Source: a virus. Taken from it: a stretch of 64,000 bases of DNA. The notes under the pieces were generated by a model, which made no database searches, was not told where the DNA came from, and saw only the letters and a list, made by a program, of their open reading frames with translations. This document shows positions 42,903 to 43,553 of this stretch, in pieces. Position numbers and translations under genes: made by a program. The stretch lies in IMG/VR virus record IMGVR_UViG_3300013101_001415; one strand, written 5' to 3'. Numbering within the stretch: position 1 is the stretch's first letter; the number at the start of each line of letters is the position of its first letter.

Positions 42903-42971
42903 AGTTTATTTAATTTAAAAACCAAGAACTATATATATTAATATACATAATGCAACACAGATATTTGTACT

Positions 42972-43085
42972 AATTAACTCACTCAATTAACTCACTATTA
43001 AAAACAATTTTAACTCAATATAAGGATAAGAATTATAATTTTAATAAAAATTACTAATTTTAATAAAATGTTGTATTCTTTATCC
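42972..43085. repeat. iteron-like cluster: tandem 13-bp AATTAACTCACTC x2, two TAATTTTAATAAAA copies 19 bp apart, flanked by imperfect inverted repeat GGATAAGAAT/ATTCTTTATCC
   Basis: read directly from the noncoding region 42903-43148. Confidence 0.5.
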
Positions 43086-43148
43086 TGTGTTGGAAAGGAG
43101 TATTTATGATATTAATAAACCATTGTTCAAACTGGAAAGGGTTGTGAT

Positions 43149-43316
43149 ATGTCTGATAACAGAACTTTAAAACAAGTTGTTACTAAAATAAAGAATAAAA
43201 TTATTAATTATATACATATTGCTGATTTAAAACAATTAGTAAACGTTAGTAAATATGTTGGCGTAAGAATAAATGAAAAGGATTTAGAAAGGTTGAATAA
43301 GAAAATTAAAGAATAA
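43149..43316 (+). CDS. small ORF (55 aa), doubtful
   Basis: below ORF-track threshold; lies inside a long regulatory-looking region; weak RBS. Confidence 0.25.
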   Translation: MSDNRTLKQVVTKIKNKIINYIHIADLKQLVNVSKYVGVRINEKDLERLNKKIKE

Positions 43317-43403
43317 ATAATTTATTATTATATATCAAGCAAATACATGTCCTTGATAACTTAATAATAAATACAAATGACAAATAAACTTTTACAGAAA
43401 CTA

Positions 43404-43490
43404 GTATACCTAGTCTAATGTTTAAGTCTATTTCATATATTACCATATATTGGTTTTTATGAAATAGACTTAAACATTAGACTGGGTATG
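43404..43490. repeat. large inverted repeat (26-bp perfect, about 33-bp imperfect arms, 22-nt spacer)
   Basis: TAGTCTAATGTTTAAGTCTATTTCAT ... ATGAAATAGACTTAAACATTAGACTG. Confidence 0.7.
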
Positions 43491-43553
43491 CTATATTATT
43501 TTAAACGGTAAATCTTTTTGTCGTTTTTTATCTTTAAAAAAAGAGGATTAACA

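Follow-up and report, generated by a model that had tools for sequence, protein, structure and literature searches.

A giant, structurally conserved hairpin in what looks like a one-directional transcription unit of an uncultivated jumbo phage

Introduction

What is the stretch between positions 42903 and 43517 of this uncultivated jumbo phage for? An earlier note on the same DNA described a noncoding region of ~600 bp with repeats and a large palindrome, and proposed a replication origin, a pac site, a cruciform or a bidirectional regulatory hub. The features it listed are present where it placed them in the window (the whole 64,000-nucleotide stretch of DNA that was analysed), but they do not make up one noncoding block, as the 55-codon reading frame among them, ORF55, is a genuine conserved gene. 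The hub fares similarly; a promoter consensus, a leader and an RNA hairpin do appear to lie between two genes, but all the genes and all the elements of the region are on the + strand and point in one direction. The core, which had been called extremely AT-rich, has 22.5% GC against ~27% for the window, a modest difference.

The surrounding block consists of replication and transcription genes, with an RNA polymerase, a topoisomerase II, a helicase and an SbcC-like protein. The neighbours that were scanned (36818-49262) are an RNA polymerase beta, a DUF6957 protein, an MVP-like protein, an ATPase and unknown ORFs, whilst the SSB label once given to the downstream block was not borne out by Pfam, by PHROGs, by sequence comparison with the PDB or by fold searches. 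No annotated relative is available for guidance, because none of 50,697 records of deposited phages was matched by positions 40000-46000 in a blastn search. Comparison is therefore with related loci, which are given L numbers where they have to be told apart.

Read from its sequence, the stretch looks like a compact + strand transcription unit with an mRNA-level control element rather than an origin or packaging site, in which a probable phage promoter, a structured leader and a 55-codon gene are followed by a 36-bp hairpin ahead of the next gene (Table 1).

Table 1. Coordinates of the elements and genes of the region, in window positions
Feature	Position	Strand	Description
Promoter-like block AAGAACTATATATATTAATATACATAA	42924-42950	+	Near-invariant in relatives; recurs before other genes
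M1 core ACTATATATATTAATA	42928-42943	+
AACTCA(C) direct repeats, three copies ("iterons")	42972-42983, 42985-42996, 43010-43021	+	In the presumed transcribed leader; two tandem copies of AATTAACTCACT and a degenerate third, TTAACTCAATAT
AU-rich leader hairpin	43022-43086	+	Holds both TAATTTTAATAAAA copies; closed by AAGGATAA / TTATCCT
TAATTTTAATAAAA copies	43036-43049, 43055-43068		Within the inverted repeat AAGGATAAGAAT / ATTCTTTATCCT
Strong Shine-Dalgarno GGAAAGGAG	43092-43100	+	CCTGTGTYGGAAAGGAG near-invariant in close relatives
13-codon mini-ORF	ATG 43106 to TGA 43147	+	Ends 1 nt short of the ORF55 start
ORF55	43149-43316	+	Small gene; Lys-rich, probably helical protein
Small hairpin TATCAAG...CTTGATA	43333-43358	+	In the ORF55 3' UTR
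Giant hairpin	43402-43493	+	36-bp stem (34 Watson-Crick + 2 G·U pairs), 20-nt apical part
U-rich box ("T-box")	43514-43531	+	CTTTTTGTCGTTTTTT (43514-43529) plus two further bases, which are AT in the window
Shine-Dalgarno GAGGA	43543-43547	+
190-aa gene	ATG 43554; element 43543-44126	+

Promoter, leader and ORF55

The first element is a promoter-like block in which every column is at least 90% identical among the nine close relatives that cover it, whilst the flanking DNA varies. A motif repeated inside the window was considered for its core, M1, and rejected, as both the 23-mer and the 15-mer are unique there and recurrence is seen only in related contigs, that is, those having homologues in common with the window. 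In these contigs other genes have the exact 16-mer ahead of their ribosome-binding site and start codon, mostly at a distance of 25-75 nt, and it points away from a second motif, M2, which serves divergent genes. By this placement M1 behaves as a putative phage promoter consensus. Early promoters of jumbo phages are ~10-nt AT-rich motifs centred near -10 (PMC7598289), a description that M1 fits. In jumbo phages that encode an RNA polymerase (phiKZ and AR9 types), the early promoters of the virion RNA polymerase are described as highly conserved AT-rich motifs ahead of several operons (PMC7598289), as M1 is in related genomes, although the published consensus motifs differ in sequence from M1, and M1 has only the one copy in 64 kb. 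Sigma-70-like sites were not enriched in the promoter scan (23 against 19 expected).

Downstream of M1 are the tandem repeats that the earlier note had reported, and a third, degenerate copy behind them. Across the window the 12-mer shows no enrichment, matching 21 times when up to 2 mismatches are allowed where 19 are expected, yet the triple arrangement is kept in relatives. Close relatives have 2-4 copies of AACTCA on the + strand (one in L020), all downstream of M1, and the more distant L010 and L012 have three. The spacing in close relatives is ~11-13 and 22-25 nt, close to one or two turns of the helix. A DNA-level element, be it an iteron/AT-rich/cruciform origin, a promoter-primed origin in the style of T4 or T7, or a pac site, might be expected to look like this, with phased direct repeats (three here) together with AT-rich DNA and a strong promoter, all amid genes for replication and transcription, and from the layout of the sequence a promoter-primed origin may be present. 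Taken as a whole, this explanation is very improbable. In L010 the repeats lie ~500 nt further from the promoter, behind a structured RNA, and have stayed close to the downstream ribosome-binding site instead; further evidence against an origin comes from the giant hairpin considered below.

The AU-rich hairpin that follows folds alike in 10 of 10 close relatives, and compensatory changes are found in 5 of its 15 consensus pairs, such as a basal U-A that has become A-U in 4 of the 10 sequences. Taken alone, the window's copy folds no better than shuffles (z = 0.11). The two TAATTTTAATAAAA copies inside it had been singled out in the earlier note as a direct repeat bracketed by an inverted repeat. 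Both are present, but it is the hairpin that is conserved and not the direct repeat, which is at chance level (4 matches against 2.0 expected, a number reached by 14 of 100 shuffles). Behind the strong Shine-Dalgarno sequence most relatives have, like the window, a short ORF of 4-13 codons whose peptide sequence is not conserved, and it is inferred from the arrangement that this mini-ORF would be translationally coupled to ORF55.

ORF55 had been thought doubtful, but its position, length and codon pattern are all conserved. A tblastn search gives matches in the same place at 33 loci, ~15 of which are clear homologues and the rest weak (E 0.005-5.6), and the protein database holds seven homologues at 62-67% identity in addition to the identical sequence. 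The length is held to 53-58 codons in relatives, and the differences fall at the three codon positions in the numbers 217, 89 and 378. The AF2 model is of low confidence, with two helices. Equivalents of the small hairpin in the ORF55 3' UTR can be read from the alignment of close relatives, with altered stems (TTAAG/CTTAA and TTAGA/TCTAA), and relatives have one more small hairpin there that is absent from the window.

The giant hairpin

The large palindrome reported earlier, with its 26-bp perfect inverted repeat, does contain 26 perfect pairs, and these extend to a stem of 36 bp. The 151 nt from 43380 to 43530 fold at -63.7 kcal/mol (z = -13.4), and the hairpin score of 33 compares with 16 for the runner-up in 64 kb; the ordinary terminator-like hairpins of the window have stems of 14-16 bp. 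Conservation in related phages, a check that had been proposed for the palindrome, was assessed at 74 non-redundant loci of the homologous 190-aa gene. Position and shape are kept in 70 of them: in MFE folds the rod measures at least 22 bp in 70/74 and at least 30 bp in 62/74 (median 41 bp), with its 3' end 30-100 nt ahead of the ATG of the 190-aa gene in 70/74. A gapless hairpin score of at least 15 is reached at 38 of the 74 loci and in none of 391 control windows.

What is conserved is the pairing and not the sequence, which varies between relatives. Compensatory changes occur in 14 of 22 pairs, and 93.4% of the cells of the alignment are paired, compared with 33-51% when the partners are slid. 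Among 500 shuffles one reaches the number of compensatory pairs and none reaches the paired fraction or the covariation score. Even the sole SNP among near-identical contigs falls inside the stem, where it changes U·G to U-A. There is no conserved sequence, loop or bulge, and the apical part is present or absent depending on the relative. Whilst the distance from the hairpin to the downstream ATG is 52-74 nt in close relatives, that from the ORF55 stop to the hairpin is variable, at 85-198 nt; the hairpin is anchored to the downstream 190-aa gene and not to the ORF55 stop. Wherever ORF55 and the hairpin are both detectable they are always neighbours.

The strand on which the hairpin acts can be read from its imperfections. 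Mismatches in the stems comprise, on the + strand, 213 G·T (G·U in RNA) and only 25 A·C, whereas control hairpins have 287 and 245 (Fisher p = 5e-24), and the fold energy is -58.7 kcal/mol for the + strand against -47.8 kcal/mol for the - strand. Because the mismatches are biased to G·U on the + strand, the hairpin acts as a sense-strand single strand and not as a cruciform. This strand is most simply taken as RNA, although G·T wobbles would equally favour a single-stranded DNA hairpin of the + strand, so that such a hairpin may also fit. A cruciform or a protein-bound DNA palindrome is disfavoured because either would give symmetric mismatches, and here the palindrome is strand-asymmetric, unconserved in sequence and conserved in pairing only.

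The other evidence bearing on an origin or pac site points the same way, and none of the DNA-level proposals in the earlier note is supported. The GC-skew check that it suggested gives a cumulative skew rising monotonically through 42-44 kb with no inflection, which is a weak test in a genome whose skew is dominated by coding on one strand. Of the 10 ORFs scanned between 36818 and 49262 none matched a family of replication initiators or terminases; the scan covers known families, and several of these ORFs are of unassigned function. The region is internal to contigs in several independent assemblies (62, 73 and 247 kb), and no retrieved contig ends there, whereas a pac or cos site would be expected in or beside terminase genes or at genome termini.

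Two further kinds of palindrome were rejected. A mobile palindromic element (MITE/REP-like) does not suit a hairpin that is single-copy, syntenic and sequence-divergent, and a protelomerase-type telomere site was set aside by inference, given the strand asymmetry and a 20-nt centre that is not palindromic. The giant hairpin is not a described RNA family: with all 4227 models of Rfam 15 and the family gathering threshold as cut-off, no family was found in the window region or at the hairpin in 20 relatives. Eukaryotic miRNA precursors gave matches below threshold, the best at 37 bits where the gathering score is 89, and these were rejected as artefacts of shape. The only match above threshold in relatives is a DUF3800-VI RNA in L010, at a different position. 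In relatives the locus that M1 appears to drive holds other structured RNAs.

The U-rich box and the downstream gene

The gene to which the hairpin is anchored starts at the ATG listed in Table 1 and not at TTG 43518, its 455 homologues (60-80% identity) all starting at the equivalent Met. The product is a Cys/His-containing protein with an orphan fold; its AF2 model has a pLDDT of 89 and no structural neighbour in the PDB. Between hairpin and gene is the U-rich box, the core of which, TTGTCGTTTTTT, is invariant in 12 of 12 aligned close relatives. The full TTTTTGTCGTTTTTTGT is kept in most of these, where the box runs on as ...GT(CG), whilst the window and L003 end in ...AT and L022 has one change. 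The exact motif occurs only at the syntenic spot, and wherever it is found within related phages in IMG/VR it precedes a homologue of the 190-aa gene. As it is found only before this gene, the box was rejected as a general class of terminator tail or promoter; nor is it an antisense copy of M2, since it is without the ATATAAA half of that motif. A basal helix between the box and GACAAA upstream of the hairpin is possible in the fold of the window, but was rejected as one strand is invariant and there is no covariation to support it.

A long hairpin followed by a run of U brings to mind a terminator or attenuator, in which hairpin and box would stop or pause the polymerase after ORF55 and so set the read-through to the 190-aa gene and beyond. 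We consider this unlikely. In its favour, 68 of the 74 relatives have a T-run of at least 5 behind the structured region, mostly 30-48 nt before the ATG, and in 26 of the 68 it lies within 3 nt of that region as it would in an intrinsic terminator (4-10 nt in 23, more than 10 nt in 19), with a gap of only 0-1 nt after the last paired base in L009, L017, L018, L020 and L022. Similar tails stand directly behind three ordinary hairpins of the window, TTTTTCCGTC at two of them and TTTTTTTTGTTG at the third. The genome's own intrinsic terminators (4655-4700, 14254-14300 and 32305-32348) have a hairpin and then a T-run downstream of a gene, with a tail resembling the TTTTT(N)(N)GT(C/T) of the T-run at the giant hairpin. 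A terminator would also suit the finding that neither the exact M1 core ACTATATATATTAATA nor the exact M2 core TTAGAACA occurs between ORF55 and the 190-aa gene. Because of this same finding, co-transcription of the two genes is the simplest reading.

Against a terminator, the window's T-run starts 21 nt beyond the giant stem. Measured from the last paired base the gap is 12 nt there and 16 nt in L015 and L019, outside the ~3 nt of a U-tract adjacent to its stem. The stem is followed by AUAUUAUUUUAAACGG, with only AUAUUAUUUU immediately behind it, and a terminator scan called nothing at this position. Where a terminator would have a short stem rich in G+C and a small loop, there is a long AT-rich stem with a 20-nt apical part; stems of 30-50 bp far exceed what termination needs and are 2-3 times longer than those of the genome's own terminators. 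Those terminators differ, too, from the giant hairpin in that its T-run is 12-16 nt off in the window and several close relatives and its box is gene-specific, unlike a general terminator tail. Anchoring to the downstream ATG rather than to the ORF55 stop is a further point against.

A second alternative is a translational operator, whereby a protein binding the hairpin and/or the single-stranded U-rich box would control translation of the 190-aa gene. The candidates are the 190-aa protein itself, ORF55 or another phage factor, and the model is provided by T4 gp32, RegA and gp43, which act on their mRNA leaders. The core of the box has remained invariant in the close clade whilst the proteins drifted to ~75% identity, it occurs before this one gene at a distance from the ATG that is fixed in most relatives, and ORF55 and the hairpin keep constant company. 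The layout is also comparable with that of the operators of T4 gene 32 and regA, a stable structure at the 5' side and then an unstructured leader rich in U and A that leads to the ribosome-binding site of a conserved gene of the replication and transcription block; here this leader is ~50 nt long and takes in the Shine-Dalgarno sequence. Even so, an operator seems quite unlikely. The hairpin offers no conserved sequence, loop or bulge for a specific protein to read, no RNA-binding domain or known fold was detected in ORF55 or the 190-aa protein, and the box is changed in distant relatives (TTTTTTGTTC, TTTTTTCGTC). Compared with the T4 operators the hairpin is long and simple and not a pseudoknot, and the neighbouring proteins are at most candidate nucleic-acid binders.

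A proposed processing site in the message

Another role is suggested by the length of the stem and by the strand on which it is kept. We read the giant hairpin as a dsRNA element acting in cis within the UTR between ORF55 and the 190-aa gene, where it would most likely serve RNase III-type processing or insulation, and give this reading an even chance. RNA would be initiated at M1 by this phage-specific promoter, and would begin with a 5' leader containing three AACUCA repeats and the AU-rich hairpin, after which the strong ribosome-binding site and the tiny upstream ORF would feed translation into ORF55. The same RNA would extend into the 5' UTR of the 190-aa gene, where the 36-bp hairpin stands ~60 nt before the start codon and is followed by the invariant U-rich box. 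Acting in cis as dsRNA, the hairpin would be cleaved by an RNase III-type enzyme that splits the ORF55 message from the downstream message. By fixing where the mRNA of the 190-aa gene begins, this cleavage would also determine the stability and translation of that mRNA, as at the intercistronic sites of T7 and lambda.

The internal loops of T7 RNase III sites direct single-strand cuts; the stem here differs in being a near-perfect duplex of 30-50 bp. RNase III requires a target of at least ~22 bp, or two helical turns, and cuts transcripts of lambda, T7 and T3 (PMC5371410); the 36 bp of the window and the rods of 70 of the 74 relatives reach this length. With all genes on the + strand and the wobbles biased to it, the duplex would be presented in the sense transcript. 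In these respects the hairpin resembles those cut by RNase III in T7 and T3 early mRNA and in lambda (the N leader, sib and cIII), which are long intercistronic sense-strand dsRNAs in a one-directional operon, with stems above the ~22-bp minimum, structure conserved rather than sequence, and effects on mRNA separation, stability and translation such as would be expected here (PMC5371410). It differs from the T7, T3 and lambda sites in being a single gene-specific site in 64 kb and not one of a series, and in being coupled to an invariant U-rich box.

An RNase III signature of the ERLEFLGD type (ExLE[FWYL][LIVM]GD) is absent from the + strand reading frames of the 64-kb window, the strand on which every gene lies, in a genome of roughly 250 kb. 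The bins of metagenome-assembled genomes (MAGs) in which relatives are placed are ANME-2, Asgard, Izimaplasma and Thermoplasmatales, and inference of a host from bins this contradictory was rejected.

RNase III-type processing alone does not explain the invariant and gene-specific U-rich box, and for this reason an additional sequence-specific partner is indicated. A bolder explanation, and an improbable one, is that the near-perfect dsRNA hairpin of ~40 bp and the box constitute a new class of cis-regulatory RNA in jumbo phages with a purpose other than ordinary processing. Its dsRNA could then be a signal to a phage factor, perhaps ORF55 or else the 190-aa protein encoded beside the RNA polymerase genes, by which expression is timed or localised, or the hairpin could be a decoy or trigger for host defences that sense dsRNA. 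Were this so, the M1-driven locus would be a dedicated "RNA locus" of the phage clade.

Implications

The phages concerned form a clade of jumbo phages that encode an RNA polymerase and are abundant in metagenomes from sediment, groundwater and lakes, as the 455 homologues of the 190-aa gene attest, yet the clade has no cultured member. The analysis supplies a number of handles on it, namely the promoter consensus ACTATATATATTAATA, a second candidate promoter TTTTTTAGAACAAAATATAAA, a conserved small gene, and a structurally conserved and previously undescribed RNA element before an orphan gene that is among the most conserved of the clade. For annotation, a false candidate for an origin or pac site is removed. 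If RNase III-type processing of the giant hairpin is indeed what takes place, the shaping of mRNA known from T7 and lambda would extend to jumbo phages that carry multisubunit polymerases of their own.

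Genomic context

The 64 kb of sequence seen here, from a genome of about 250 kb, has a GC content of about 27% with all credible genes on the + strand. Family scans of the window found a ribonucleotide reductase, beta'- and beta-like subunits of a multisubunit RNA polymerase, a topoisomerase II, a helicase and an SbcC-like nuclease, and the window is the replication and transcription block of a jumbo phage with its own RNA polymerase. No similarity to deposited phages was found at the DNA level; near-identical contigs of 62-247 kb occur in JGI, ENA, Logan and GenBank assemblies. 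Contigs of the clade in GenBank (L213-L217) lie inside MAGs labelled ANME-2, Promethearchaeota, Candidatus Izimaplasma, Thermoplasmatales and "uncultured bacterium", labels that are most likely binning artefacts, and because these bins conflict no reliable host assignment can be made.

Relatives were gathered through homologues of the very conserved 190-aa protein encoded downstream of the region (455 homologues, 60-80% identity), with 80 metagenomic loci encoding a homologue fetched to give 74 non-redundant upstream regions. The gene starts at an ATG with GAGGA in front, as in all homologues. The 312-aa gene that follows it had been taken for an SSB, a function without support from Pfam, PHROG or PDB-sequence searches, which supported no other function either.

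The MVP-like gene further downstream is absent from three relatives (L008, L009 and L010), which suggests that it is an inserted cassette. It is flanked by two copies, 92% identical, of the 37-nt hairpin-forming CCATATTCTCYTTCTAATAGAATGRAGGAGRATATGG, the first of which overlaps the start of a 58-aa ORF, and within the gene about 5-6 copies of the 18-nt tandem repeat GAAATCCCTAAAGGTGAT encode the hexapeptide repeat EIPKGD. The 207-kb relative L008 has a 364-aa NUMOD3-domain ORF (L008:970-2064) inserted between its RNA polymerase beta and DUF6957 genes; the window has no such ORF there. NUMOD3 is a domain characteristic of homing endonucleases.

Features of the window around the region upstream of the 190-aa gene and related elements elsewhere
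Feature	Position	Strand	Remarks
RNA polymerase beta gene	36818-40909	+	
DUF6957 gene		+	3' of RNA polymerase beta gene, before three unknown ORFs
Three unknown ORFs	last ends 42902	+	followed by the region in question
Promoter-like block AAGAACTATATATATTAATATACATAA	42924-42950	+	in the upstream 246 nt
M1 core ACTATATATATTAATA	42928-42943		promoter-like motif
AACTCA repeats	42972-43021		
ORF55	43149-43316	+	55 codons
Giant hairpin	43402-43493	+	36-bp stem
U-box	43514-43531		U-rich box
190-aa gene	ATG 43554	+	followed by 312-aa gene
312-aa gene	44143-45081	+	followed by MVP-like gene
M2 TTTTTTAGAACAAAATATAAA	before genes at 14355, 20465, 22382, 32366	+	intergenic; about 20-65 nt upstream of start codons
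CCATATTCTCYTTCTAATAGAATGRAGGAGRATATGG, two copies	45096-45132, 47938-47974		flanking MVP-like gene
58-aa ORF	45117-45293		
GAAATCCCTAAAGGTGAT repeats	45816-45923		within MVP-like gene
Terminator-like hairpins	4655-4700, 14254-14300, 32305-32348		14-16-bp stems

A small gene within the region

The region holds a promoter-like motif, a structured leader, a small gene, an anchored sense-strand hairpin and a gene-specific U-rich box. It is not the single noncoding stretch described in the earlier note, which had doubted ORF55. In the relatives a small ORF likewise stands between an 84-aa gene and the 190-aa gene, with a gap on either side. tblastn matches to ORF55 fall at this position in 33 of the searched loci (about 15 are clear homologues, the others weak) and seven homologues plus an identical sequence in the protein database. 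The length is kept at 53-58 codons and nucleotide differences at codon positions 1, 2 and 3 number 217, 89 and 378; by this comparative evidence ORF55 is a gene. Its product is Lys-rich and, from a weak model, probably consists of two helices.

The giant hairpin

The large palindrome is real and outstanding. The 151-nt stretch that holds its stem folds at -63.7 kcal/mol (z = -13.4), and its symmetric hairpin score is 33, the next best in the whole 64 kb being 16. A gapless search recovered a strong hairpin in nearly all 74 upstream regions. Its score was at least 15 in 38 of the 74 loci, a level reached by none of 391 control windows taken from these loci, and in 61 of the 74 its 3' end is 45-90 nt away from the ATG. 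In minimum free energy folds the rod reaches at least 22 bp in 70 of the 74 loci and at least 30 bp in 62, the median being 41 bp. Conservation in related phages extends to pairing and position, whereas the sequences are unrelated from sub-clade to sub-clade; what is conserved is a long, nearly perfect duplex with a dispensable apical part. In the closest clade 93.4% of cells are paired, against 33-51% with the partners slid, and 14 of 22 stem pairs carry compensatory changes. The hairpin is anchored to the gene that follows it, at a steady 52-74 nt from the ATG in the close clade, with the distance from the ORF55 stop varying from 85 to 198 nt.

Transition mismatches in the stems are strongly asymmetric on the + strand, with 213 G·T against 25 A·C compared to 287:245 in control hairpins (Fisher p = 5e-24), in a search that penalised both equally. 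The relatives lack phylogenetic independence, but because the hairpin sequences are so divergent the strand-asymmetry and positional statistics are not carried by a few lineages. The stem of L009 has five G·U pairs inside one 8-pair stretch, and among six near-identical contigs the sole polymorphism in 691 aligned bases changes a stem U·G to U-A. From these comparisons it appears that the giant hairpin is selected as a single strand, the + strand, which is that of the mRNA, and it very probably acts in cis as part of the sense RNA rather than as a DNA site. Strand-asymmetric mismatches and conservation of pairing only would not be expected of a cruciform, of a palindromic operator or of a mobile palindromic element, and the earlier proposal of an origin, a pac site or a cruciform is now highly improbable. 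No Rfam family was matched by the hairpin.

The U-rich box and termination

Between the hairpin and the Shine-Dalgarno sequence lies CTTTTTGTCGTTTTTT. The close clade shows no variation in the core of this U-box, TTGTCGTTTTTT, which in most close relatives runs on as ...GTCG; distant relatives have TTTTTTGTTC or TTTTTTCGTC in its place, mostly 30-48 nt before the ATG. The exact box is found at this site only, and in IMG/VR, within related phages, only upstream of 190-aa gene homologues. A translational operator, bound by a protein and centred on this gene-specific box, is a rather doubtful reading of the hairpin.

An attenuator or terminator, in which hairpin and T-run would act together, is also unlikely, if slightly less so. 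The last paired base is 12 nt from the T-run in the window and 0-16 nt among close relatives; across the family a gap of at most 3 nt is seen in only 26 of 68 cases, so that hairpin and U-box are not a canonical intrinsic terminator. Compared with intrinsic terminators the giant hairpin fails in both adjacency and stem, and a terminator scan reported none at the hairpin and U-box. Ordinary terminator-like hairpins do occur elsewhere in the window, directly followed by tails (TTTTTCCGTC twice, TTTTTTTTGTTG once) similar to that of the U-box, and the conserved G/C-G-T-C behind the T-run may be part of the termination signal of this phage group.

Promoter-like motifs and the structured leader

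The block AAGAACTATATATATTAATATACATAA occurs once in the window. It stays almost unchanged across the nine close relatives whose sequence reaches it, every column being at least 90% identical, with the end of the preceding gene varying. Its core, M1, turns up again in contigs sharing homologues with the window, there mostly 25-75 nt ahead of the RBS and start codon of other genes, and in several of these contigs M1 and a second motif, M2, are arranged back-to-back. Related contigs also have M2 in reverse orientation ahead of divergent minus-strand genes, and ORF maps of L153 and L188 place it ahead of divergently oriented genes. From this recurrence and back-to-back arrangement M1 and M2 behave as two promoter classes, of which M2 is probably the second. 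Jumbo-phage early promoters have been described as strongly conserved, AT-rich and about 10 nt long, lying near -10 (PMC7598289), a description that the M1 sequence fits. A promoter-primed origin of the T4 or T7 style would be compatible with the sequence, but has nothing specific in its support.

Close relatives share the series of elements after M1, namely AACTCA repeats, an AU-rich hairpin, the near-invariant CCUGUGUYGGAAAGGAG and a mini-ORF of 4-13 codons whose end adjoins the start of ORF55. The repeats, once read as iterons, include the tandem AATTAACTCACT pair as described and a third degenerate copy. The leader hairpin is closed by AAGGAUA / UAUCCU, with compensatory changes in 5 of 15 pairs. 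Both reported copies of TAATTTTAATAAAA are there, but at chance level for the composition (4 matches against 2.0 expected), the duplication being simply the window's version of the upper part of this hairpin.

In relative L010 (ENA ERZ23486228, ATLA15-1 scaffold_302; 190-aa protein 63% identical), whose genome is otherwise rich in AT, the stretch L010:2515-2965 holds a GC-rich block of about 400 nt with an M1-like motif on one side and the AACTCA repeats on the other. An inverted repeat, TTTTGAATATGAAGG / CCTTCATATTCAAAA, closes this block, which is probably a large structured RNA and has no Rfam match; within the stretch, just after the block, 2916-2965 matches the Rfam DUF3800-VI RNA (51.6 bits, gathering score 35). 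GC-rich stretches after M1 are also found in L045, L060 and L057, and the locus may be a hotspot for noncoding RNAs.

A putative processing site

As no exact M1 or M2 core intervenes, M1 would drive one RNA that covers ORF55 and continues into the 190-aa gene. A long near-perfect duplex in such a transcript would most economically be read by an enzyme of the RNase III type, for which the minimal substrate is about 22 bp and which processes lambda, T7 and T3 transcripts (PMC5371410). Cleavage would separate the ORF55 message from the downstream message and set the 5' end of the 190-aa-gene mRNA, and the giant hairpin may well be such a processing site. This putative site would then resemble in its action the RNase III hairpins that lie between cistrons in T7 and lambda.

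The giant hairpin is best filed as a new, family-wide instance of a cis-acting mRNA hairpin, and also new, alongside it, are the promoter motifs defined for this uncultivated jumbo-phage clade.
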